A stretch of 40,792 nucleotides of DNA, taken from IMG/VR virus record IMGVR_UViG_3300029231_000023, positions 1-40,792 of that record. One strand, given 5' to 3'. The translations under genes and the position numbers were made by a program. Source of the stretch: a virus. Of the stretch, positions 751 to 12,286 are shown piece after piece. Every line of letters starts with the position of its first letter. Position 1 is the first letter of the stretch. The notes under the pieces are model-generated. The model saw only the letters and a program-made list of their open reading frames with translations, did not search any database and was not told the DNA's origin.

Positions 751-1084
751 TTCGCTCTGCCTCCTCTCTGAACAGCCGCTCGCACAGACTCTGCACGGTT
801 GCGCAGCCCTTCGTCTCACACAGCCGTTGCAACGCCGCCGCGCCGCTTTTTGTCAGCCGGAAGTAGAACCGGCAGGATTTCCTTCGTTTCTCCGGCTTCG
901 GCGCTCCTGAGGCGTCCAGCGCCTTGATCGCCGCAGCTGCCTCCGGAACAAGCTGTACGCCGTATTTCTCCGGCGCTTCGCACTGAGAAAGCAGGCATTT
1001 GTTGAACTTCGGGTAGTCGGCCCGAACCGCCTCGACACAGGCTTTCGCACCATGCCGGACGCGGGAATCCGTTAAACTTGACAT
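734..1084 (-). CDS. Hypothetical early protein
   Basis: 116-aa ORF in the minus-strand early operon. No motif recognised. Confidence 0.5.
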   Translation of the reverse strand: MSSLTDSRVRHGAKACVEAVRADYPKFNKCLLSQCEAPEKYGVQLVPEAAAAIKALDASGAPKPEKRRKSCRFYFRLTKSGAAALQRLCETKGCATVQSLCERLFREEAERSGIQW

Positions 1085-1168
1085 AGGTTCCTTTCTGCCC
1101 TATAATGAGGGCGACAATCGTTTTCCTTTCGGCCTCTGTCGCGTTGCCGCGCGGCAGGGGTCATTTCT

Positions 1169-3760: not shown

Positions 3761-3811
3761 CTATTATAACTAAGTTTACTAAGAATGTCAACAAAAACTT
3801 AGTTATAATAG
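3761..3811 (-). promoter_or_regulatory. Leftward consensus promoter embedded in a 16-bp-arm inverted repeat (main switch operator)
   Basis: On the minus strand: TTGACA (3791-3786), 17-nt spacer, TATAAT (3768-3763). Arms are CTATTATAACTAAGTT (3761-3776) and AACTTAGTTATAATAG (3796-3811). A TATAAT also reads on the plus strand at 3804-3809. Confidence 0.7.
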
Positions 3812-4201: not shown

Positions 4202-4425
4202 AAATTCCGTCTTTTTCAGATTTCAAAGCGCAGCTCGACATCGAGGCCGCAGCATATGACTTTGAAAATGCGTTAACTGCATTTACTGCGGGAAATTCTC
4301 TCCCGTTTTCTGCGGAGCAGGTGTCTGCTCTTGCATCGTGCTCTGTCGCTGTTTCTCTTGTGCTTCTGCAACAATATCATACATGGCTTTCCGAAACGCT
4401 TCAGTCATTGCATGAATTGGAGTGA
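4198..4425 (+). CDS. Hypothetical protein coupled to the CI-like gene (conflicts with antisense ORF 4283..4438)
   Basis: ATGA overlap with the CI-like stop codon. GAGGGGG lies upstream. 75 aa. Confidence 0.4.
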   Translation: MKIPSFSDFKAQLDIEAAAYDFENALTAFTAGNSLPFSAEQVSALASCSVAVSLVLLQQYHTWLSETLQSLHELE

Positions 4426-4438
4426 ATGGCCTACTCAT
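4283..4438 (-). CDS. Small ORF (51 aa), not in the ORF track, antisense to 4198..4425
   Basis: AAGGAGGG lies 5 nt upstream of the ATG at 4438. Sequence MSRPFTPIHAMTEAFRKAMYDIVAEAQEKQ... Confidence 0.3.
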   Translation of the reverse strand: MSRPFTPIHAMTEAFRKAMYDIVAEAQEKQRQSTMQEQTPAPQKTGENFPQ

Positions 4439-4574
4439 GCATACCCTCCTTAATCATTCTCAAAAGTTCTTCCTGTTCTTCAACCGAAAGTTCTAACACG
4501 ATCCGCTTTAGCTGTGTGCGAATCTGCTCTATCTGGCTGCTATCATAGCACACTTCCTGTAAATTTTCCAGCAT
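4431..4574 (-). CDS. Small ORF (47 aa), not in the ORF track
   Basis: GGAGG lies 5 nt upstream of the ATG at 4574. Sequence MLENLQEVCYDSSQIEQIRTQLKRIVLELSVEEQEELLRMIKEGMHE. No competing ORF on the plus strand. Confidence 0.4.
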   Translation of the reverse strand: MLENLQEVCYDSSQIEQIRTQLKRIVLELSVEEQEELLRMIKEGMHE

Positions 4575-4764
4575 TGTGGCCTCCTATCTCCAAACTTCCA
4601 AATTTCGACGTCTATTTTTGTGCTGGTTCGGCATTGCTGTGGCTGGTTCTAGGTGGTAATATGTAATTTTTTACAGCGCTTGCATAGAAAACGCTGTAAT
4701 CTGGTGGTGATTTCAGATTTTCAACTTTTTTAAGAACAACAAAAAGCCAAAATTCAAGATAGAA

Positions 4765-5352
4765 ATGCACGCATTCGAAAACGGTCGCGAGGTCGAGCTC
4801 AAGCCTGATGCTTCACCATCGAGTGATATTCCGGACTTCGAAGAGATGAAGTTTATCAACGAGCATATCAAGCCGTATGAGGATATTATGATTGGCTTTT
4901 CCGTCGCGCTAAAAGAGCGGCATGGGCTTGACGAGGAAATCAGTCTTCTCGAATGCGAGATTTCCGCATATAACGATCTTCGGCAATTCTGTATATCTTG
5001 CGGAAGAAAACAGTATTTTGAAGAAGAGTGGGGAAAGCCCCTTCGGAAAATGCCAGGAGGAACTACATATATTACCCCAGCAACTGATCGTCTAAACTAT
5101 TTAAAGGAAAACTATCAGGAGTTGAAGCAGCGAGAAAATATAAGAGTTTCTATTCTTCCAACATTAGATGCAGATTTACTCGCTTTTATCTCTAAGGCCC
5201 AGCCAGTTTTACAAACCGATATATATAAGGCGTTTGATAATGCCATCAAGGAAGACATTAAAGAGCATCTTTATTTTCTGGATAAAAGCGGGCAGATATC
5301 CCGGGTAAAGCACGGAAGCACTTACGTTGTCTCGCTTCATATGTGTTTATAA
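4765..5352 (+). CDS. AT-rich orphan protein with a C-terminal winged-helix-like segment
   Basis: 195-aa ORF in visibly AT-richer DNA than the rest of the phage. Weak RBS. C-terminal sequence LLAFISKAQPVLQTDIYKAF...YFLDKSGQISRVKHGSTYVV. Confidence 0.5.
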   Translation: MHAFENGREVELKPDASPSSDIPDFEEMKFINEHIKPYEDIMIGFSVALKERHGLDEEISLLECEISAYNDLRQFCISCGRKQYFEEEWGKPLRKMPGGTTYITPATDRLNYLKENYQELKQRENIRVSILPTLDADLLAFISKAQPVLQTDIYKAFDNAIKEDIKEHLYFLDKSGQISRVKHGSTYVVSLHMCL

Positions 5353-5899: not shown

Positions 5900-6475
5900 A
5901 TGTCCGCAATACAGGATCTCGCTCCGTTTATCGGCGCGTATCAGGGGAAGATCAGAAGGGCAAAAGATGCAAGCGGGATGACGTTGGAGGAGCTGTCGAA
6001 CGAGTCCGGCGTTTCCTTCTCTGCCGTGAGCCGATTATACGCTGGAACACAAGCGGATCCACGGCTTTACAACTCGGCTGCACTATGCAAAACGCTCGGG
6101 TTGTCGCTCGACGAGCTGTTCGGCCTTGAAAATCCCGTCGGAAGCCCGGAAAAGCTGACCAAGCAGATCCATCATGTCGAGCTTGAAAACGCCAAGCTGG
6201 AGGCAACAGCGGCCGCGCAAAGCGCACAGATAAAGTCTACACATACAATGTGTTACGTCCTCGCCCTGTTTTGTATGCTGCTCTCCTTTTCTCTGATTGC
6301 CTGCCTTGTGACGGATGCGCAGAGTCGGAGCGCAGGCCTCATTCGCGGTGGAGATTTGTCCGTAGCTGCATGGGTTTGCATTGCCCTGATCGTAGGTTCA
6401 GCGCTGGCTTCGGCAATTACTTTCTACGCGATCCGAAAAGAACGTGGAGGGAAACATGGAGTGCATCAAGTGTAA
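5900..6475 (+). CDS. Membrane-anchored XRE-family HTH protein
   Basis: N-terminal HTH (MTLEELSNESGVSFSAVSRLYAG), a coiled segment, then two hydrophobic helices (MCYVLALFCMLLSFSLIACLV; AAWVCIALIVGSALASAITFYAI). GGAGG RBS. Overlaps the integrase start. Confidence 0.65.
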   Translation: MSAIQDLAPFIGAYQGKIRRAKDASGMTLEELSNESGVSFSAVSRLYAGTQADPRLYNSAALCKTLGLSLDELFGLENPVGSPEKLTKQIHHVELENAKLEATAAAQSAQIKSTHTMCYVLALFCMLLSFSLIACLVTDAQSRSAGLIRGGDLSVAAWVCIALIVGSALASAITFYAIRKERGGKHGVHQV

Positions 6476-7559
6476 AAAGGAAATCCCAGACGGCGCGCCT
6501 TACTGTTGCTGGTGCGGAAAAAAACAGGAAGCGCGGCGAAACCGGACACGCGGGAACGGGCAAGGAAGCGCTTACCAGCGAGGGAAGACGTGGACGGCGC
6601 GTTGGACAGAAAGAACTTACCTAGACGAGAACGACAAGCTTCGGCAAAAGATGCGAACAAAAGGCGGGTTTACATCAAAGCGCGCCGCCCTCCAATATGC
6701 CGCAAACCCTCCGAAGGAAGAGCAGCGAAGCCCCACTCTCAGAGAATACTACAAAACATATCTGCGTGGGGATTATCTATCCTTATCGGCTGATCGTCAG
6801 GGCGCGGCGGAAAAGGCATTCGAGCGCATGAAAGAAATCGCCGACCGTGAGATCGACGCGCTTACCATCGCGCAGATACAGGATGTCATCGACCGCAACG
6901 CCAGCACCTATTACACGCGGAAAGATATGAAAACCGTCCTCTCCCACTGTTATAACCTCGCAATCGCAGAAAAGCAAACAACCGTGAATCTTGCAAAGTA
7001 CATAAAGCTTCCGGAATTGGAAGAGAAGTCGCCGGAGCCGTTTACCGACGCCGACGTAAAAAAGCTATGGGAAGCGTATGCAAAAGACCACTTCGTTGGG
7101 TTTATTTTAACGATGATTTATACCGGCATGATGCCCGGTGAGCTTCTGAAACTCAAGAAAGATATGATTGACTTTGAAAAGAATGAGATCGTCCGAGGCG
7201 GCATAAAGACAAAGAAGCGGAAGGAAACGCCTATGGTCTTCCCGGATTTCGTTGCGCCGGTGCTGCATGAACTATGCGAAGAAAGCAAATCGCGCGTCGG
7301 AAATATCTGCTGCATAAACAAAGATAATTTTTACAAGAGATATTATGAGTGTTTGGAGCTTGCCGGAGTGCAAAAGCTACCACCTTACTCATGCCGCCAT
7401 ACAACCGCTACAGCCCTCGCAATGAAAAACATCGACCCGTTTACGATCAAGGAAATCATGCGCCACACGAAGATAACGACTACCCAACGGTATGTACACC
7501 CGGACATGAAAGGCATGGTCAATGCCGTAAATCAGTTGCAAAACGACTCGACAGAGTGA
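6456..7559 (+). CDS. int: Tyrosine integrase with an N-terminal zinc ribbon
   Basis: GGAGG lies 5 nt upstream of the ATG at 6456. Zinc ribbon CIKC...CCWC. Catalytic-type motifs SCRHTTAT and MRHTKITTTQRYVH. Confidence 0.9.
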   Translation: MECIKCKKEIPDGAPYCCWCGKKQEARRNRTRGNGQGSAYQRGKTWTARWTERTYLDENDKLRQKMRTKGGFTSKRAALQYAANPPKEEQRSPTLREYYKTYLRGDYLSLSADRQGAAEKAFERMKEIADREIDALTIAQIQDVIDRNASTYYTRKDMKTVLSHCYNLAIAEKQTTVNLAKYIKLPELEEKSPEPFTDADVKKLWEAYAKDHFVGFILTMIYTGMMPGELLKLKKDMIDFEKNEIVRGGIKTKKRKETPMVFPDFVAPVLHELCEESKSRVGNICCINKDNFYKRYYECLELAGVQKLPPYSCRHTTATALAMKNIDPFTIKEIMRHTKITTTQRYVHPDMKGMVNAVNQLQNDSTE

Positions 7560-7621
7560 ATTATGTATGCTACAAAATATGTTACAAACGCCAATTTCCC
7601 CAGTGTTTTCAATGGGTTTTT

Positions 7622-7686
7622 CTCCCCTGCTAAGGGAGTAGGCGTCTAAAAAGCGCGCGAGAGTTCAAATCTCTCCTTCCGCGCCA
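7622..7686 (+). tRNA. 3' fragment of a tRNA-Ser(GCU)-like gene (anticodon arm to CCA), probable attP core
   Basis: Anticodon stem CTCCC/GGGAG with loop CTGCTAA (anticodon GCT), a long variable arm, T arm GAGAG-TTCAAAT-CTCTC, and acceptor 3' strand CTTCCGC-G-CCA. No matching 5' acceptor GCGGAAG or D arm lies upstream. Confidence 0.6.
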
Positions 7687-7688
7687 AA

Positions 7689-7731
7689 GTACCGATTTTA
7701 GATTTAAAACATCTAAAATCGGTACTTTTTT
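7689..7731 (+). terminator. Rho-independent terminator after the tRNA fragment
   Basis: 15-bp stem GTACCGATTTTAGAT / ATCTAAAATCGGTAC, 7-nt loop, then TTTTTT. Confidence 0.75.
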
Positions 7732-7852: not shown

Positions 7853-7873
7853 AGGGGACTCCCCTATTTTTTT
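7853..7873 (+). terminator. Short GC hairpin plus T7 run (A run on the other side; possibly bidirectional)
   Basis: AGGGG-ACT-CCCCT followed by ATTTTTTT. It abuts the stop codon of the minus-strand gene 7875..8222. Confidence 0.5.
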
Positions 7874-7874
7874 G

Positions 7875-8222
7875 CTACATGGACTTTATTTTCCGAAGCA
7901 TAGAATCATAGACTTTTCGGTTCACAAGCGATAATGTGTCCATAAGTTCATCAACGACCGCCCAAGCCTTTGCCGGGTCTTTCCCAGCTACCGCAAGCAA
8001 AAACTCACTGTCCCCGTACTCGCCCACGGTAGCCGGTTCTGCGGTCACAGGGGCGGGAGCGCCGGAGTAGTAACCGACATACTTACCGCCGTCGCCCCGT
8101 TTCTCTTCCTGCATCTTGTCGCGTATCACATAAAGATCTGCCAGTTTGGCATAATTGGGATAGCTGGATTCCTCATATTCCAGCCGCGCTATCTCCTTGC
8201 GGATCTCGGCTTTATCCAGCAT
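7875..8222 (-). CDS. Cargo operon gene 10: hypothetical protein
   Basis: 115 aa. AAGGGGG RBS. No motif recognised. Confidence 0.55.
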   Translation of the reverse strand: MLDKAEIRKEIARLEYEESSYPNYAKLADLYVIRDKMQEEKRGDGGKYVGYYSGAPAPVTAEPATVGEYGDSEFLLAVAGKDPAKAWAVVDELMDTLSLVNRKVYDSMLRKIKSM

Positions 8223-8234
8223 ATCATATCCCCC

Positions 8235-8606
8235 TTATGCCCGCTCGATCTGCTCCATGCAGCGGCGGATCGCTTCGCGGGTCTTATCGTCGTCCGCGTC
8301 GCGCATCATATCGTCCAGCTGCGCGCGCATGTGCTCGCGGGCATCAGCGCGGGTATAGCGGCCCATTGCGTCACGGCGGCGGCCACGGTAAGAGCTGCCC
8401 CGGCCGTAAGTACCGCGCATATCCGCCTCCCACTCGCCATCGCGGGAATAGCCGCCGTCTTCAGCCATCTCGATCTTGTAGGTATTCTTGATGGAGCTGG
8501 TCAATTTCTGGATCGCGTCGAGGTCGCCTGCGGACATTTCCCGCTTCTCGGCAATTTCGTCCAGCTCTTTGCAGAGCATTTCGCGGAGATTCCTCAGATC
8601 ATACAT
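8235..8606 (-). CDS. Cargo operon gene 9: acidic/Arg-rich hypothetical protein
   Basis: Start at ATG 8606 with GGAGG 7 nt upstream. It has an RG/Y-rich centre (GRGSSYRGRRRDAMGRYTR). Confidence 0.55.
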   Translation of the reverse strand: MYDLRNLREMLCKELDEIAEKREMSAGDLDAIQKLTSSIKNTYKIEMAEDGGYSRDGEWEADMRGTYGRGSSYRGRRRDAMGRYTRADAREHMRAQLDDMMRDADDDKTREAIRRCMEQIERA

Positions 8607-8620
8607 ATTGCTTCCTCCTT

Positions 8621-9049
8621 TCATGCTACGCGCTCGACGGTAAGATTGCTGTTTGCAAAATTAACCGTTTGCGCGCTGGTGTTTCGCATACCTACCGTCA
8701 GGCAGCAGCCTCTTGGCACGCTCACATGTGCGGATACATAAACGTTAAAGTAGTTTTCTACCGCTGCCGGTGTCACGATCGCCGTCGCGCTTGCAAGGGC
8801 TTCACCGTTGATGGCAAGTGCGGCCGTGATCGCCTCGACCGTGCCGCCGGTTGGAATTGCGATGTTGCCGCCGTAGGAGACTTTGAAAACTGCTCTACAC
8901 TGATTCGTCAGCCCGCGCAGCGTAACAAGCCCGCTTCCTTCGCGATGTACGATGCACGGCTTTCCGCAAGCTGCCGTGGAGATCAGAGGGACGTTCTGCC
9001 CAGCGGCGACGCCGACGACGTTGGAATTTGTAAACTCAGCCAATCCCAA
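8621..9049 (-). CDS. Cargo operon gene 8: BclA-C-terminal / C1q-TNF-like jelly-roll protein (tentative)
   Basis: 142 aa with no ATG start; TTG at 9049. The pattern VPL...G.VTL...AVFKVSYGG...LAINGEAL...NLTVERVA parallels the BclA C-terminal domain, which ends ...IIIEKVA. Confidence 0.45.
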   Translation of the reverse strand: MGLAEFTNSNVVGVAAGQNVPLISTAACGKPCIVHREGSGLVTLRGLTNQCRAVFKVSYGGNIAIPTGGTVEAITAALAINGEALASATAIVTPAAVENYFNVYVSAHVSVPRGCCLTVGMRNTSAQTVNFANSNLTVERVA

Positions 9050-9260
9050 ACACCCCGCTTCCCGAATTGCCTGCTTTGCAGTAGTTCAAAATCGGCTCCA
9101 TCGCCGTCTTCATCGCCTCTGCGCAGCTCGGCTGCTCCATTTCGTCCACCGTTTTCAGGATACAGGCGTATGTATAGAGATCCGTGATGTTCATCTTGTA
9201 CAGATCCACGCCCATCAGGTGATCGATGAATTTCTTCTTGAGTTCCTTATATGTTGCCAT
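9036..9260 (-). CDS. Cargo operon gene 7: small hypothetical protein
   Basis: Internal ATG at 9260 with AAGGA 8 nt upstream. The upstream part of ORF 9036..9344 overlaps a terminator hairpin. Confidence 0.45.
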   Translation of the reverse strand: MATYKELKKKFIDHLMGVDLYKMNITDLYTYACILKTVDEMEQPSCAEAMKTAMEPILNYCKAGNSGSGVFGIG

Positions 9261-9269
9261 AAAATCATT

Positions 9270-9310
9270 CCTTTCATAAAAATATAGCGGCGGGACGATT
9301 GCCCCGCCGC
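9270..9310 (-). terminator. Intrinsic terminator or attenuator inside the cargo operon
   Basis: On the minus strand: GCGGCGGG-gcaatcgt-CCCGCCGC followed by TATATTTTTAT, ending about 10 nt before the RBS of the next gene. Confidence 0.6.
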
Positions 9311-9383
9311 GTTGCTTTCGAGTATCGGCAATGGGGCCGACCATTTTCGTGAGGCCACGAAAAAGCTCTACGATGTGGAGTTG

Positions 9384-10142
9384 TTACGCGCAGTTGCCGC
9401 AGCCGTAGTTGTAGCCGCTGTTGCAGCAGTACGGATTCGCTACAACATAGGCCGGGCTGGGACTCGGGCGAAGCGTGGAAACAAGGTAATTGTTTTGTGC
9501 CGCCTGCGATGCCGCCAGCTGGTAGCCGAAAAGCTGCTGGTTCTGCTCGGCGATCTTCGCGTCCTTCGCCGCAAGCTCCTGCGCCGTCAGACGCTGGTCG
9601 ATGCTGCGGAAGCCGCAGTTCATCGCGTCGATGATGTCGCGCGTGGTGTTCTGCACGGTGTTGCGGGTGTCGCATGCCTGCGTCGCCATGTCATAGCGCA
9701 CCTGGGCGATTGCAGCGCGGTTTTCGCAGCAGCACTCCTGTGCCTGCATCGCCATGTTGTTCAGCTGCTGCATAAGCGCGGCCTGCTGGTTGCAGCGGGA
9801 AAGCTCGGCCTGAGCAAAGCCGTTTGCCATCGCCATGTTGGTGCCGTTGACAAGCTGCGCCTGCTGGTAAAATCCGTCGCAAAGTCCCTGATTTACACTG
9901 TCGATCTTGCGCTCGATGTTGGAGAAGTCAGAGGCCAGCACATAGCCGTCTACAACGCCGCCGGAATTTCTGCCGTTGTTGCCGAATCCGTTTCCATTGC
10001 CGCCCCAGCCGCAGAAAATGGCAAGGAACAGGATGATGATCCACCAGCCATTATCACCGCCGAAGCCGCCCCAGCCGCCACCTGTCATGCCGGTAGGCGC
10101 GACGGGCATTGTCATGGTCGGGGAGCCGTCATTCAAACTCAT
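9384..10142 (-). CDS. Cargo operon gene 6: Gly/Trp-rich membrane protein with a Q/N/A-rich coiled coil and a Cys-rich tail
   Basis: ORF 9384..10151; the ATG at 10142 has better SD spacing. Sequence GGGWGGFGGDNGWWIIILFLAIFCGWGGNGNGFG, an internal CCC, and a C-terminal PYCCNSGYNYGCGNCA. Confidence 0.6.
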   Translation of the reverse strand: MSLNDGSPTMTMPVAPTGMTGGGWGGFGGDNGWWIIILFLAIFCGWGGNGNGFGNNGRNSGGVVDGYVLASDFSNIERKIDSVNQGLCDGFYQQAQLVNGTNMAMANGFAQAELSRCNQQAALMQQLNNMAMQAQECCCENRAAIAQVRYDMATQACDTRNTVQNTTRDIIDAMNCGFRSIDQRLTAQELAAKDAKIAEQNQQLFGYQLAASQAAQNNYLVSTLRPSPSPAYVVANPYCCNSGYNYGCGNCA

Positions 10143-10226
10143 ATTTTTCATTCCTTTCGTAGATTCAAAAGATTTATCTCAATCGTGGCCACGATTTTGA
10201 TCGTTCAACTGTTTGGAATTCCCGAA

Positions 10227-10442
10227 CTATTGCAGCAGTTGCCGGAATTGCCCCGCCACCTGCTGCAGCTGATTCAACTGCTGCTGCGAGATTTTCCCGC
10301 TTCGCACCAGCTTTTCGATCTCTGCTTTTGGATCCCCCTGAAAGCTGTTCTGGAATTGCCGGAACTGCTGTATCATGTTCTGGAACTGCCCCATCGGGCC
10401 GGGCAGCTGTCCGCCGCCGAGGGCGTTAAACAGTGGGTTCAT
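10227..10442 (-). CDS. Cargo operon gene 5: small Q-rich helical protein
   Basis: 71 aa. GAAGGAGG RBS. Repeated QQF/QQL motifs. Confidence 0.55.
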   Translation of the reverse strand: MNPLFNALGGGQLPGPMGQFQNMIQQFRQFQNSFQGDPKAEIEKLVRSGKISQQQLNQLQQVAGQFRQLLQ

Positions 10443-10902
10443 TGTCCGCCTCCTTCATCTTTCGCGGTCTGACGCTTGGGGCGGATAGCTTCGCCACAAG
10501 CTCTTCAAACTCCCTGCGGGTCACATATTCTTCGCTCATGTCTTTTCGCGGCGCTGCGGGCGCTGGCGCGGCCTGTGCGCGTTCTACGAGGTCGTAGACG
10601 ATCATGCTCGGCTTGCCGCTTGCATCAGCTTTTTTGACGTACACAACAGGCGCGTTCATGTCCCATAGCGTTACGGCATTGTTGGGTGCAACAATAAAGT
10701 CGTTTGCCGCCTGCTCGTTCGGGATCCAGATGATCGACTGATTCTGCGGCTGCTGGGGCTGCGGCTGGTAGGCCGACATCTGCGGCGCGGGCTGGTACTG
10801 CGGACGCATCATTGGCTCCTGCATCGGCTGACTGATCGGCTGGCCGATTGGCTGATTATAAATCGGCTGCTGATACACATACGGCTGTTGTCCGAACATC
10901 AT
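10426..10902 (-). CDS. Cargo operon gene 4: protein with a roughly 55-aa Q/P-rich N-terminus plus a small globular domain
   Basis: 158 aa. AAAGGAGG RBS. ATGA coupling to the upstream gene. Confidence 0.6.
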   Translation of the reverse strand: MMFGQQPYVYQQPIYNQPIGQPISQPMQEPMMRPQYQPAPQMSAYQPQPQQPQNQSIIWIPNEQAANDFIVAPNNAVTLWDMNAPVVYVKKADASGKPSMIVYDLVERAQAAPAPAAPRKDMSEEYVTRREFEELVAKLSAPSVRPRKMKEADNEPTV

Positions 10903-11291
10903 TTATCCTCCTTTGCCCAGTAGAACAGCGGGATCTCATTGCCGCTGTCCCATGTGTCGAAATAGCTTCCGTTCTCCGCACAGACCACATGACTGGACAG
11001 AGCAAGAACGTACACGCCGCGCGGATGGTCTGCGCAGAAATCCGCGACGGTGTAGCAGTCCGGGCATGTGTTTGGGATCACGTTCCGGGTAAAGCCCTGC
11101 TGCCGGAGGTATGCGCTCCACACGCTGTTTGCGCTCGGCAGATCGCCCATGATGAGCCCCTGCAGGCACAGGCCGATATACACCTCGTCCCAGCTCTTCC
11201 CGGTCGCCTTTGCGATGGCCCGGACGGTGCAGTCCCCGACCTTCTGCCCGGCGGGATTTGGATTGAAATAAGAAAAGCCCATACCGAACAC
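10899..11291 (-). CDS. Cargo operon gene 3: putative papain-fold cysteine peptidase-like protein
   Basis: 130 aa. Candidate triad: Cys in GDCTVRA, His in SSHVV, Asp in FDTWD. AAGGAG RBS. Confidence 0.45.
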   Translation of the reverse strand: MFGMGFSYFNPNPAGQKVGDCTVRAIAKATGKSWDEVYIGLCLQGLIMGDLPSANSVWSAYLRQQGFTRNVIPNTCPDCYTVADFCADHPRGVYVLALSSHVVCAENGSYFDTWDSGNEIPLFYWAKEDK

Positions 11292-11347
11292 TCCTTTGAT
11301 GTGTCCAGTATGGGCTTTTTACTATTTTCCTGTGCCTCAGTTATGCA

Positions 11348-11530
11348 TCAGTTTTGCTCAAATAAATATGCAGCAATCCAGCCGCGTATCAGTTCGTTTG
11401 GCGTCGTGCCGTTGGACTTGGCTGCGGCCTTAAATCTTTCCGCGATCTCCCGCTTGAGCTTGCAGGAGATCACGGACATGTTCTCAGCGTCCCACTTGTT
11501 GCGAGCGCGGCGCTGGGTGTCAGTCGGCAT
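11348..11530 (-). CDS. Cargo operon gene 2: ribbon-helix-helix (CopG/Arc-like) protein
   Basis: Start at the internal ATG 11530. Sequence MPTDTQRRARNKWDAENMSVISCKLKREIAERFKAAAKSNGTTPNELIRGWI. Confidence 0.55.
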   Translation of the reverse strand: MPTDTQRRARNKWDAENMSVISCKLKREIAERFKAAAKSNGTTPNELIRGWIAAYLFEQN

Positions 11531-11906
11531 AGCATACCTCCCACGCGCAGACGTTCGCCGCATTCAACGCGGCAGAAATCAGCGCTTCGGCGTCCACGCC
11601 CAGAACGCCGGAGACGGACCGCAGAACGCCCAAGACATCCTCCGGGGTGTCAACGGACGCATCGTCCATTGTGCCGTCGGAAAATTGCCAGCAGAAGCCG
11701 TCAGCCGTCACGGAAAAATACACGCGGCTGCCAAAATCGCCGCAGGACGTGTCGTCGGCCTCGACGGTGACAAGCTGGCCGTTAAGATCGACGACGATAC
11801 CGCCGGAAAACTGCCAGTAACCTCCGCCATTATTTGCAGTGTCCGGGTTATAGTGGGGATTTGTCTGCGCTCCCCACGCGGAAACGATATTAAACATGTC
11901 TGCCAT
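11520..11906 (-). CDS. Cargo operon gene 1: hypothetical protein with an internal YWQFSGG / FCWQFSDG repeat
   Basis: 128 aa. GGAGG RBS. First ORF after the consensus promoter. Confidence 0.55.
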   Translation of the reverse strand: MADMFNIVSAWGAQTNPHYNPDTANNGGGYWQFSGGIVVDLNGQLVTVEADDTSCGDFGSRVYFSVTADGFCWQFSDGTMDDASVDTPEDVLGVLRSVSGVLGVDAEALISAALNAANVCAWEVCYAD

Positions 11907-11953
11907 CCTCCGATTTTTTTGTCGTGTTTGTTTTGCTTTGTGTCTATGGCTGC

Positions 11954-11982
11954 ATTATATACTGTAATACCGTATATGTCAA
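11954..11982 (-). promoter_or_regulatory. Perfect consensus sigma-70/sigma-A-type promoter for the cargo operon
   Basis: On the minus strand: TTGACA (11982-11977), 17-nt spacer, TATAAT (11959-11954). Confidence 0.75.
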
Positions 11983-12002
11983 GGGCTTTTCAAAAATTTT
12001 TA

Positions 12003-12036
12003 TATAAAAAATAAGCGCCGAGAAACCGGCGCTTAT
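12003..12036 (-). terminator. Rho-independent terminator ending the late (structural/lysis) operon
   Basis: 9-bp stem ATAAGCGCC/GGCGCTTAT, 8-nt loop, then TTTTTTAT on the minus strand, 2 nt after the stop codon at 12038. Confidence 0.7.
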
Positions 12037-12037
12037 C

Positions 12038-12286
12038 TCAGTTATACAGTTTGCTGGATGTCCGCTGCATCTCCCGCATGATCTCCGGCAGGCGTCGCTG
12101 TACCGTGGCGCGGCCCAGATACAATTCTGCTGCAACGTCCACTTGCGGGAGCTTGTCCACGAAATAGAGCTGTGCAATCTGCGCGTTTTCCCGGCCAAGA
12201 TTGGCCTGATAGATTACGGCCTCCATATCCTTTCTGGTCAGCCTGCCCAGCTCTGGCGGCAGCTTGGCCCGCGCCTGCGGCGACAT
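12038..12286 (-). CDS. Small HTH protein (sigma-70 region-4-like)
   Basis: 82 aa. Sequence VAAELYLGRATVQRRLPEIMREM. Confidence 0.4.
   Translation of the reverse strand: MSPQARAKLPPELGRLTRKDMEAVIYQANLGRENAQIAQLYFVDKLPQVDVAAELYLGRATVQRRLPEIMREMQRTSSKLYN

Follow-up and report, generated by a model that had tools for sequence, protein, structure and literature searches.

The ten small genes between the lysis cassette and the attP/integrase end of the virus record IMGVR_UViG_3300029231_000023 (40,792 nucleotides, here called the window) are, with roughly even confidence on our part, a composite of two units of differing history, a swappable cassette and a module kept by a phage lineage. The organization of Unit A (approximately 11345-12036: a terminator, a promoter and genes g1 and g2) suggests a 0.7-kb self-regulated accessory cassette. 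Unit B comprises sig82 together with g3, g4, g5, g6, the hairpin T2, the variable g7, g8, g9 and g10. We regard it as an ancient, vertically inherited accessory module, carried by a lineage of Clostridia siphoviruses from gut and rumen and located at the extreme end of the late strand, 3' of holin and endolysin. An earlier note on this DNA had placed the 4.1-kb block (7875-11982, minus strand) correctly, and all ten ORFs named there exist (Table 1).

Table 1. Features of the block and its surroundings, in the order of minus-strand transcription, with the attP end last
Feature	Position	Strand	Description
sig82	12038..12286	-	82 aa, sigma-70 region-4/GerE-LuxR-type HTH; last gene of lysis operon, conserved partner of the module
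Direct repeat, left copy	12037..12045	-	9 bp, ATAACTGAG, read from sequence; overlaps sig82 stop codon
T1	12003..12036	-	intrinsic terminator, first cassette element; 14-bp stem + U-run, -19.7 kcal/mol, z -5.2
Promoter	11954..11982	-	sigma-70 consensus, TTGACA-17-TATAAT, 12/12 match
Candidate operator	11959-11973	-	ACGGTAT-T-ACAGTAT; covers most of the spacer and first -10 base
g1	11520..11906	-	128 aa, cassette payload; ORF of no known family
g2	11348..11530	-	60 aa, ribbon-helix-helix, last cassette gene; ATG 11530 (refined start)
Direct repeat, right copy	11336..11344	-	9 bp, ATAACTGAG, read from sequence
T0	11273..11319	-	hairpin, 19-20-bp stem, -33.9 kcal/mol, z -8.1; U-rich tract UUUUCUUAUUU 3' of stem
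g3	10899..11282	-	127 aa, papain-like; ATG 11282 (refined start, as in homologues)
g4	10426..10902	-	158 aa; phrog_21718, E 8e-26; family alignment
g5	10227..10442	-	71 aa; phrog_22984; alignment
g6	9384..10151	-	255 aa; phrog_16490, E 1e-39; >7900 homologues
T2	9287..9310	-	GC-rich hairpin + U-run, -24.3 kcal/mol; 3' of g6, divides module before g7/g8
g7	9036..9260	-	74 aa, variable accessory ORF; ATG 9260 (refined start)
g8	8621..9049	-	140-142 aa, predicted TNF/C1q-type jelly roll; probable start TTG 9043 (140 aa); phrog_20016
g9	8235..8624	-	phrog_28802, E 9e-9; alignment; likely start ATG 8606, SD-led
g10	7875..8222	-	115 aa, helical, last module gene; kept in distant loci (Ceridwen, E 3e-15)
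Probable attP core	7617..7687	+	resembles 3' part of a tRNA

Unit A opens with the strong terminator and the perfect promoter that the earlier note had already recognized. Three perfect copies of TTGACA-17-TATAAT occur in the window, where 0.10 matches would be expected even allowing up to one mismatch, and the cassette promoter is the sole obvious promoter upstream of g3. The g1 product is strongly acidic (net charge -16) and does contain the internal repeat YWQFSGG / CWQFSDG; its reading frame overlaps that of g2 by 11 nt. Assignment of g2 to ribbon-helix-helix proteins is borne out by matches to Pfam RHH_10 (E 4.2e-5; 24.2 bits, below the cut-off of 27) and to a PHROG of CopG-like repressors (E 4.5e-5), and it is probably the cassette autorepressor. 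A weak hairpin (-11.7 kcal/mol) lies 3' of g2; like the lone obvious promoter upstream of g3, it counts against the reading we favour. The two copies of the direct repeat bracket the whole cassette. This layout resembles autoregulated morons, especially anti-defence operons of the acr-aca type; general family libraries, which are not anti-defence-specific, returned no Acr, Aca or toxin homology for g1-g2. T1, carried by the cassette, would stop the late transcript, g2 would bind the candidate operator in the spacer and shut off its own promoter, and g1 may target a protein of the host, in the likeliest case one belonging to its defences.

The same site was compared in about 75 close-relative loci containing both flanking genes, sig82 and g3. 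It is empty in about 22 of them (sig82-g3 distance 76-86 bp, no promoter or terminator), a count which, like those for cassette presence, includes closely related loci and does not represent independent events. The remaining loci carry 750-2300 bp of inserted DNA whose small ORFan genes vary. The pair g1-g2 is confined to a minority of near-identical phages, other relatives having other cassettes or nothing. At the repeat position, empty sites show CTGAG motifs and 11-bp TGAnGCACAnn repeats. T1 is missing from them, while almost every cassette examined is headed by this same terminator, followed by a consensus or near-consensus promoter. The promoter spacer type tracks the last gene of the cassette (RHH 24/24, HTH 30/30, long RHH 2/2, again with closely related, non-independent loci included), and this covariation suggests an autoregulated moron with acr-aca-like layout. 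We conclude that the sig82-g3 gap is a recombination hot spot for cargo cassettes.

The term cargo operon, applied by the earlier note to all ten genes, therefore holds for g1-g2 with their terminator and promoter but not for g3-g10, which, minus the variable g7, are lineage-core. The supposed ten-gene synteny reduces to seven genes, g3-g4-g5-g6-g8-g9-g10, which are collinear in hundreds of Oscillospirales and Lachnospiraceae phage loci (IMG/VR, GTDB, GenBank); in 80 GTDB loci this order holds down to 30-60% identity. The module is also present in the isolated Butyrivibrio phage Ceridwen, 3' of the endolysin and immediately after a predicted terminator. Its identity between the window and Ceridwen is 29-50%, versus 28-52% for head and tail genes (TerL, portal, MuF, scaffold, MCP, connectors, major tail protein and TMP). 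As the module is kept as faithfully as these genes, it is probably not lysogenic-conversion cargo. Ceridwen infects Butyrivibrio fibrisolvens, was observed to grow only lytically, carries no gene annotated as encoding an enzyme of integration or excision, and was rated probably virulent by its authors (PMC7372960). Lysogenic conversion, the function originally proposed, is therefore not what maintains the module.

These results bear directly on the first alternative, in which the ten genes form one prophage-expressed conversion operon remodelling the spore coat, exosporium or another surface layer. The block does stand at the prophage end, adjoining attP; in a 58-kb phage, however, the module adjoins replication genes and not an integrase. 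The host of Ceridwen is, to our knowledge, non-sporulating, which weakens any inference of a spore coat or exosporium role. The probable attP core (T-arm GAGAG-TTCAAAT-CTCTC and acceptor end ...CGCGCCA as read from the sequence; no complete tRNA found there by ARAGORN) shares 86% identity with an intergenic segment that lies about 570 bp away from the integrase in Faecalibacterium phage Aster, and Faecalibacterium is likewise, as far as we know, a genus without sporulation. Nor do the ORFs make up a single tightly packed operon, since two strong hairpins, T0 and T2, lie in its gaps, and the hairpin at 7853-7873 that was thought to close it scores as weak when read on the gene strand (z -0.6), and its T-run is located on the plus strand. 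No sequence-level link to coat or exosporium families was found. We consider this alternative very unlikely; a BxpB/BclA-like fold and a GerE-like regulator, described below, keep it as a minority reading.

T0 pairs the start codon of g3 and part of its SD. Among 10 sequence variants it is kept, mostly by one-sided (wobble) changes; a few pairs are broken and compensatory double changes are absent. Its inverted repeat was recovered by a second search too. At the entry to the core module this hairpin could either terminate transcription or block translation. Of 70 unique loci, 43 also have a terminator preceding g8. Ahead of g3, many distant loci possess first a terminator and then a -10 box of TATAAT type, often TG-extended; a strict scan upstream of g3 in 87 loci detected terminators in 23, -10-like boxes in 14 and both in this order in 5. 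The module may thus have transcription of its own, separate from that of the late operon; this would agree with expression in lysogens too and counts in favour of a conversion operon. In several lineages the module is preceded by a small sigma-70-region-4 HTH gene: genes of the sig82 type stand immediately upstream of it in the window, in L100, in the 58-kb bajarodcaudo virus 5 and in distant loci. sig82 itself matches Pfam Sigma70_r4 under the gathering score (E 0.0056), whereas its counterparts in L100 (Sigma70_r4_2, 28.7 bits) and in bajarodcaudo virus 5 (Sigma70_r4, 26.7 bits) score above it. The family scores on GerE/LuxR as well, another point for the conversion-operon alternative.

As the earlier note anticipated, searches of Pfam, NCBIfam and PADLOC link none of the ten products to a family of virion, lysis, replication or defence proteins. 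Six match PHROGs lacking assigned function and g2 matches repressor PHROGs; family libraries, a PDB sequence search and a literature search assigned no function to the module. The peculiar compositions pointed out before are real: against a background of 3.2%, Gln makes up 24% of g5 and 12% of g4, the latter having also 14% Pro. The papain-like nature of g3 is supported by its AF2 model (pLDDT 93.8) and by Cys18, His98 and Asp109, invariant across 63 sequences. Its homologues count 2820 representatives at E<1e-3 (PHROG match phrog_3754); its matches in BFVD comprise 21 phage proteins at E<1e-3 and, at 3.4e-3, a single protein annotated as C39, and the best PDB match is Josephin-2, at E 0.44 only. 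g4, whose start overlaps the g3 stop, begins with a disordered Q/P/Y-rich N-terminus, followed by a small conserved domain and finally a charged C-terminal helix. g5 overlaps g4 by 17 nt and shows allele linkage with g6 (Spearman 0.81 vs 0.04-0.2 in other neighbouring pairs). Overall enriched in G/N/Q/C, g6 starts with a Gly-rich/hydrophobic segment/Gly-rich arrangement and continues with a long Q/N-rich region that contains conserved Cys motifs (CCC), before a tail rich first in Pro and then in Cys/Gly. The core of its hydrophobic segment spans about 14 residues (KD19 1.49), a shortness that counts against the reading we favour. g7 has no family in Pfam or PHROGs and occurs in some relatives only, always with 91-93% g8 alleles or one 82% g8 allele. 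g9 has a low-complexity R/G/S/Y-rich core between helical ends.

The likeness of g8 to the C1q/TNF-like C-terminal domain of BclA, noticed earlier, is upheld by its AF2 model (pLDDT 78.5, pTM 0.73) and a Foldseek search of PDB, which returned F-BclA CTD 9h38 (E 1e-6) and BxpB 8d02 (TM 0.78), and further ExsFA 7r1m, EDA, 4-1BBL, BclA 3tyj and the phi812 central spike knob. The modelled fold thus appears nearest to BclA-CTD, BxpB and ExsFA. The resemblance is structural, with no sequence-level link found, and g8 has no collagen-like or other N-terminal extension. That these neighbours are exosporium proteins speaks for spore-surface remodelling, as do the Q-, Cys-, Gly- and Tyr-rich products without signal peptides, like coat proteins supplied from the mother cell, and a papain-fold enzyme beside Gln-rich proteins, which recalls the Tgl/GerQ cross-linking system. 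A role in a vegetative cell-surface layer is unlikely, because hydropathy reveals a hydrophobic segment only in g6 and no signal-like N-terminus was seen in the products.

Our best guess, held with low confidence and reasoned from folds, composition and position, is that the module builds a late, membrane-anchored assembly. Unit B would be expressed mainly late in lytic growth, via read-through or antitermination and possibly aided by sig82, with T0 gating it at the buried g3 start codon and T2 splitting it after g6. g6 may insert in the cytoplasmic membrane by its single hydrophobic segment and, with its covarying partner g5, form a long Cys-rich stalk. A TNF-like trimer of g8 would dock on this assembly, a step modelled on BxpB/ExsFA, which dock fibre N-termini, and the g3 enzyme might process or cross-link the Gln-rich g4/g5. 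The resulting structure would serve an envelope-linked step of infection, for example egress, control of lysis, or prevention of re-adsorption or superinfection, and not lysogenic conversion.

Alternatively, the module may encode accessory virion or virion-assembly proteins, such as a receptor-binding or decoration complex with g8 as head and g3-g6 as assembly factors. Conservation equal to that of structural genes on the same strand would agree with this, and so would the lack of signal peptides and the mosaic alleles of close relatives, as in receptor-binding proteins; TNF/C1q-like knobs are also common at phage fibre tips, like that of phi812 matched by g8. Still, a terminator or hairpin separates the module from the lysis cassette, 3' of which it lies, g8 alleles are unlinked to tail-fibre alleles (rho 0.03-0.10), hydrophobic-segment and Gln-rich low-complexity proteins are atypical of siphovirus virions, and no structural PHROG annotation was obtained, so that we find a virion role unlikely.

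Quite unlikely, in our judgement, is that the module works as a membrane-based system for superinfection exclusion or anti-phage defence, with constitutive expression, in lysogens too, from its own promoter. The prophage-end location, the terminator and -10-like box upstream in many loci, the single membrane-type protein, the mosaic, diversified alleles and the adjoining hot spot, which gathers arms-race-type cargo, are what such a system might display. Against it, PADLOC yielded no match, and known exclusion genes are single and patchy, whereas here seven collinear genes show capsid-level conservation across Oscillospirales and Lachnospiraceae phages, with the start of the first of them, g3, buried in a hairpin of -34 kcal/mol.

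The minus strand from 12286 to 7875 carries eleven ORFs (see table): sig82, coding for a small protein of 82 aa with a sigma-70 region-4/GerE-LuxR-type helix-turn-helix (HTH), followed by the ten genes g1 to g10. An earlier note had read these ten genes as a single operon of cargo (moron) genes. Our present results describe a composite block, in which an accessory cassette (terminator, promoter, g1 and g2) is inserted into a core module (sig82 and g3-g10, with g7 variable). The cargo claim stands for g1-g2 with their terminator and promoter and falls for g3-g10, which belong to the core of the phage lineage. That the overall picture is right, composite anatomy and proposed mechanism together, we consider about an even chance, the anatomy carrying most of this weight and the mechanism far less.

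Genes of the block and the neighbouring integrase
Feature	Position	Strand	Remark
sig82	12038-12286	-	ORF
g1	11520-11906	-	ORF
g2	11348-11530	-	from SD-led ATG
g3	10899-11282	-	ORF
g4	10426-10902	-	ORF
g5	10227-10442	-	ORF
g6	9384-10151	-	ORF
g7	9036-9260	-	ORF
g8	8621-9049	-	probable start TTG 9043
g9	8235-8624	-	probable start ATG 8606
g10	7875-8222	-	ORF
tyrosine integrase	6444-7559	+	far side of block

The genes upstream of the block code for an endolysin-like protein (Pfam ELLD, E 2.5e-59), a holin (Phage_holin_6_1) and tail fibres with Collar domains. We class the whole block as accessory, placed where the late region ends. The stretch at 7617-7687 resembles the 3' part of a tRNA and is 86% identical to intergenic DNA next to the Faecalibacterium phage Aster integrase, which makes it a plausible attP core; ARAGORN found no whole tRNA at attP. 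Directly after this tRNA-like stretch, a perfect 18-bp-stem hairpin with a T-run is present on the integrase strand (7686-7728, plus strand). On the gene strand, the hairpin at 7853-7873, previously taken for the end of the block, has little strength (z -0.6), and its T-run is on the opposite strand. Rfam gave chance-level matches only for the block.

The variable nature of the first unit was apparent from 80 IMG/VR loci found with g6. About 22 of them have just 76-86 bp between the stop of sig82 and the start of g3, with neither terminator nor promoter, and the remaining loci have inserts of 750-2300 bp with various small ORFan genes, coding for g1-like proteins, multi-zinc-ribbon proteins and small acidic proteins, almost none of them recognised by Pfam. 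In the window, the insert reaches from just past the sig82 stop to about 11345 and is flanked by a 9-bp direct repeat, ATAACTGAG (12037-12045 and 11336-11344). Nearly all cassettes share their opening elements, the same terminator and a promoter at or near consensus, and close with a gene for a small DNA-binding protein. The sequence of the -35/-10 spacer tracks this last gene without exception: in counts that include related loci, the tandem repeat ACGGTAT-T-ACGGTAT (window: ACAGTAT) is paired with a ribbon-helix-helix (RHH) protein (24 of 24 loci), palindromes such as ACACGCAtTGCGTGT with a 113-aa HTH protein (30 of 30) and a third spacer type with a longer RHH protein (2 of 2).

At the level of sequence, both transcription signals of the cassette pointed out earlier are borne out: the hairpin T1 at 12003-12036 (-19.7 kcal/mol, z -5.2) qualifies as a good intrinsic terminator, and the TTGACA-17-TATAAT promoter at 11982-11954 is perfect (12/12). 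Further perfect copies of the same class are located at 1078-1106 (plus strand) and 3763-3791 (minus strand). As 0.10 consensus matches are expected by chance (with at most one mismatch), such promoters are evidently no accident in this phage. Together with an HTH_3 repressor-like gene at 5900-6475, the latter two probably mark a divergent early/lysogeny control region.

Presence or absence among close relatives is a trait of g1-g2 only. From the patchy inserts, their own signals and the covariation of spacer and regulator we conclude that the terminator, promoter, g1 and g2 constitute a putative autoregulated moron in a hot spot, with acr-aca type architecture. In this arrangement g2 would repress its own promoter, and g1 might be an anti-host payload, possibly with an anti-defence role. 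Like acr-aca and moron operons, the cassette is patchy among near-identical phages, has its own terminator and strong consensus promoter, codes for a small acidic ORFan (g1, net charge -16) and apparently ends with a small DNA-binding gene (g2) whose presumed target, a repeat or palindrome, lies within the promoter. It is situated near the prophage end, past the lysis genes; the acr loci of Listeria prophages lie downstream of the endolysin. Unlike acr-aca operons, g1-g2 gave no match to a known Acr, Aca or defence protein in the Pfam, PHROG, NCBIfam and PADLOC searches; the HTH is the usual fold of Aca proteins, whereas g2 is probably an RHH protein, and no clear terminator is present past g2, so that read-through towards g3 is possible. 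No match to g1 was found in Pfam, PHROG (E>0.1), NCBIfam or PADLOC. The g2 protein matches Pfam RHH_10 (E 4.2e-5, 24.2 bits, below the cut-off of 27) and the CopG-like repressors of PHROG (E 4.5e-5), and weakly also BrnA/RelB antitoxin models (E 0.016-0.06). A type II toxin-antitoxin reading of g1-g2 was dropped, since g1 matches no toxin family and shows no toxin-like feature.

The second unit behaves differently. In 80 loci of GTDB genomes (Acutalibacter, Ruminococcus, Oscillibacter, Lawsonibacter, Subdoligranulum and Lachnospiraceae), g3-g4-g5-g6-g8-g9-g10 are collinear at 30-70% identity, g7 being variable. The patchiness expected of a moron is lacking here, as each of these seven genes occurs in nearly all loci reaching far enough. 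In Acutalibacter sp. 1XD8-36, tail fibres, holin, an XhlA-like gene, a 114-aa ORF and a sigma-r4/GerE-like gene of 70 aa precede g3 to g10, and past g10 one more ORF is followed by host TrkA/TrkH. In the isolated Butyrivibrio phage Ceridwen, the module comes downstream of the endolysin, from which two small ORFs and a predicted terminator separate it. Between the window and Ceridwen, the collinear TerL, portal, MuF-like, scaffold, major capsid, connector, major tail and tape-measure proteins are 28-52% identical, and the module proteins, with 29-50%, equal the structural ones. Judged from this collinearity and these matching identities, the core module is an old, vertically kept part of the phage lineage. 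A virion-accessory role of the module is an unlikely alternative to the envelope-linked role that we propose below. A satellite or second-virus reading of g3-g10, with a jelly-roll "capsid" and a membrane protein, was rejected because of the absence of any replication or integration gene and the vertical inheritance with the phage.

By gene order, the sigma-r4 HTH gene is the regular upstream neighbour of the module. Sig82 and its counterparts have 70-90 aa and contain little beyond the region-4-type HTH; the window protein scores below the Pfam gathering score. Like small regulators of the GerE/LuxR type and those consisting of sigma-70 region 4 only, sig82 adjoins, on the upstream side, the module that it may control. 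At 11325-11350 of the window and in the sig82-g3 spacers of five other loci (L006, L069, L070, L075, L097), 2-4 tandem 11-bp units TGAnGCACAnn occur, each beginning with TGA and thus placing stops in all three frames. These repeats are candidate sig82 binding sites or candidate recombination sites for cassette exchange.

Another phage, the 58-kb bajarodcaudo virus 5, has a holin, a C39_2-type lysin, a coiled-coil gene and a Sigma70_r4 gene (above the gathering score), past which weak g4/g5-like ORFs, g6 (E 1e-29), two ORFs and replication genes follow; neither g3 nor an integrase was found at the module position. Its endolysin position (4415-5281 of the locus) is occupied by Peptidase_C39_2 fused to a Cu_amine_oxidN1 wall-binding domain. 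A C39_2 endolysin in a phage with no separate g3 may be a hint of cell-wall action by g3-type papain-fold proteins. In some distant loci (L100 at 8800-9000, L117, L133, L144), a small ORF whose end is a Cys-rich motif (...CxCGGxGNCPDCPNKNK) comes before g3 and is coupled to it.

Pfam, NCBIfam and PADLOC searches with the ten proteins yielded nothing beyond the sub-threshold RHH match of g2. A defence or exclusion role of the module is quite unlikely. In PHROGs, g3, g4, g5, g6, g8 and g9 fall into families of unknown function and g2 among the CopG-like repressors. From 222 diverse members of the g4, g5, g6, g8, g9, g10 and sig82 families, Pfam returned only the sig82 HTH as a useful match. The unusual compositions noticed earlier are real: Gln makes up 24% of g5 and 12% of g4, against a background of 3.2%, and G, N, Q and C are abundant in g6. 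A hydrophobic segment is found in g6 only, and a signal-like N-terminus was seen in none of the ten products. Throughout its family, g6 keeps a Gly-rich/hydrophobic/Gly-rich N-terminus and the motifs GLCDGFYA, CCC(E/D)TQR, YNMATQACDTRNTIQN-TRDIIDN-NAN-RAILD, LAASQAAQN and CPxPAYVV, followed by a Cys/Gly tail. Homologue searches with g6 and g8 returned more than 7900 proteins each.

The AlphaFold2 model of g3 is very confident (pLDDT 93.8). Cys18, His98 and Asp109, invariant in 63 sequences, form a triad of papain topology, with Cys at the N-terminus of a helix and His and Asp at the edges of consecutive strands. This Cys-His-Asp arrangement resembles that of papain-like cysteine peptidases (C39/C39_2, Josephin, NlpC/P60-type amidases) and of Tgl, the transglutaminase of Bacillus spores; the spacing C18/H98/D109-112 is one that we take to resemble C39 domains. 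Foldseek against PDB gave nothing significant, weak matches being Josephin-2 (the best, E 0.44, TM 0.48) and Tae4. The fold recurs in BFVD among phages of many phyla, where the only C39-annotated match is the model of a Bacillus phage protein (E 3.4e-3). No Pfam match was obtained with g3 and nothing useful with its long relatives, and PDB sequence searches with g3 and its profile gave no real matches. Among 1.84 billion representatives, the g3 profile found 2820 family representatives at 50% clustering, none of which yielded an annotation. Unlike characterised papain-like peptidases, g3 belongs to a large, phage-wide, uncharacterised family of its own.

The earlier note had likened g8 to the C-terminal domain (CTD) of BclA. 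The fold part of this claim is upheld, and at the level of sequence no link appeared in the searches. The g8 model is an all-beta, ten-strand jelly roll (pLDDT 78.5, pTM 0.73; confident in one of five models only), and its best PDB matches by Foldseek are F-BclA CTD (9h38), BxpB (8d02, TM 0.78), ExsFA (7r1m), EDA, 4-1BBL and BclA (3tyj), those to BclA-CTD and BxpB-ExsFA having E 1e-6 to 4e-5 and TM 0.63-0.78. Like BxpB and ExsFA of the Bacillus cereus group exosporium, g8 is a stand-alone domain of about 140 aa. Unlike BclA it has no collagen-like region, its identity to BclA, BxpB and ExsFA is 12-14%, and, unlike exosporium proteins, it is encoded in phage genomes, one of them infecting a host that we take to be non-sporulating, Butyrivibrio fibrisolvens. 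As the human TNF ligands EDA and 4-1BBL match equally well, the likeness of the modelled g8 is one of TNF/C1q fold class and not exosporium-specific. No exosporium or BclA family was found with g8 and its profile in Pfam, NCBIfam and PDB-sequence matches (E<=1-10), or with about 48 diverse family members (E<=0.01).

This bears on the proposal of the earlier note that the block serves lysogenic conversion of the spore surface. Such conversion would account for a fold resembling BxpB, a regulator of GerE type and compositions reminiscent of coat proteins, and is attractive, but it is probably wrong and in our view very unlikely. It leaves unexplained why a phage growing lytically on a non-sporulating host has the module among its core traits. 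The module is found in a B. fibrisolvens phage, and the putative attP core is shared with a Faecalibacterium phage. Ceridwen showed lytic growth only, has no annotated integration or excision enzyme and is called probably virulent by its authors (PMC7372960).

The co-variation with tail fibres that a receptor-binding role of g8 would predict is absent (no linkage between g8 and tail-fibre alleles, rho 0.03-0.10). Among close relatives, genes are reshuffled at gene boundaries, yet the g5 and g6 alleles are linked (rho 0.81). None of the homologues and loci listed is more than 93% identical to the window g8, whereas the window g6 is 100% identical to many, which points to recent mosaic exchange inside the module. 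In a comparison of the g7-g8 stretch (window 8621-9260) with the relatives L003-L082, g7 occurs only alongside 91-93% g8 alleles or one 82% allele. In Ceridwen, an additional ORF of 264 aa (9518-10312 of its locus), whose C-terminus contains an HTH_17-like stretch, is inserted between g8 and g9. Recombination in the window lineage is seen on this side of g8, too; g7 is on the opposite side.

Two strong terminator-like hairpins between the first and last gene speak against a single operon. T0 (11273-11319, minus strand; 19-20 bp, -33.9 kcal/mol, z -8.1), followed by UUUUCUUAUUU, pairs the g3 start codon and part of its Shine-Dalgarno sequence. As g4 overlaps the g3 stop and g5 overlaps g4, all three genes depend on g3 initiation. 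T0 is kept wherever the g3 allele group of the window occurs; in ten sequence variants it is retained mostly via one-sided changes, with a few pairs broken and no compensatory double change. Its flanking A-runs and U-runs give it the shape of a bidirectional terminator. A regulon-signature search revealed this inverted repeat around the g3 start and found no other convincing copy of the g3-upstream motifs elsewhere in the window. T2 (9287-9310), a strong hairpin with a U-run, follows g6 (-24.3 kcal/mol), and a terminator is present upstream of g8 in 43 of 70 unique loci. In distant loci, a terminator and then a TATAAT-like box, sometimes with extended TG, often precede g3; a strict scan for sigma-70-type boxes found this order in only 5 of 87 loci. 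Since these signs vary, reading of the module from the late operon or from its own promoter appears to differ between lineages.

We propose that the core module is made mainly late, that a membrane-anchored stalk of g6/g5 would carry a g8 trimer, that g3 may act on Gln-rich partners and that the assembly would serve an envelope-linked step of infection. In a further, quite improbable reading, sig82 and g3-g10 could be a phage-encoded self-assembling protein coat system. The GerE-like regulator would turn on synthesis very late; g6/g5 would form a Cys/Gln-rich stalk anchored in the membrane and g8 an adaptor with a TNF fold like that of BxpB, g4, g9 and g10 would serve as low-complexity matrix proteins, and the papain-fold enzyme g3 would cross-link or process. 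The resulting layer, exosporium-like or occlusion-like, would cover the dying cell, a spore or progeny virions. We know of no counterpart of such a layer in tailed phages. The titles and abstracts found in literature searches on prophages and exosporium/BclA, phage-encoded sporulation/gerE, Faecalibacterium temperate phages and Heliusviridae do not mention the module.

The cassette is of a known kind, a putative autoregulated moron, and the core module matches no characterised system. The module is present in very abundant gut and rumen phages and has been kept as long as the capsid genes, and therefore makes up a large and conserved portion of phage dark matter. Experiments on it are feasible in the cultured pair of Ceridwen and B. 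fibrisolvens DSM 3071 and in the prophage of Acutalibacter sp. 1XD8-36. The hot spot offers a ready catalogue of small, apparently autoregulated cassettes, each with a matched promoter-operator-regulator set; it could be a source of new anti-defence proteins and of orthogonal parts for gene regulation in Clostridia. In L003-L082, the inserts are a combinatorial set of 184-aa and 213-236-aa multi-CxxC zinc-ribbon proteins, 73-122-aa acidic proteins and a 185-aa protein, situated behind promoters with at least five operator variants.
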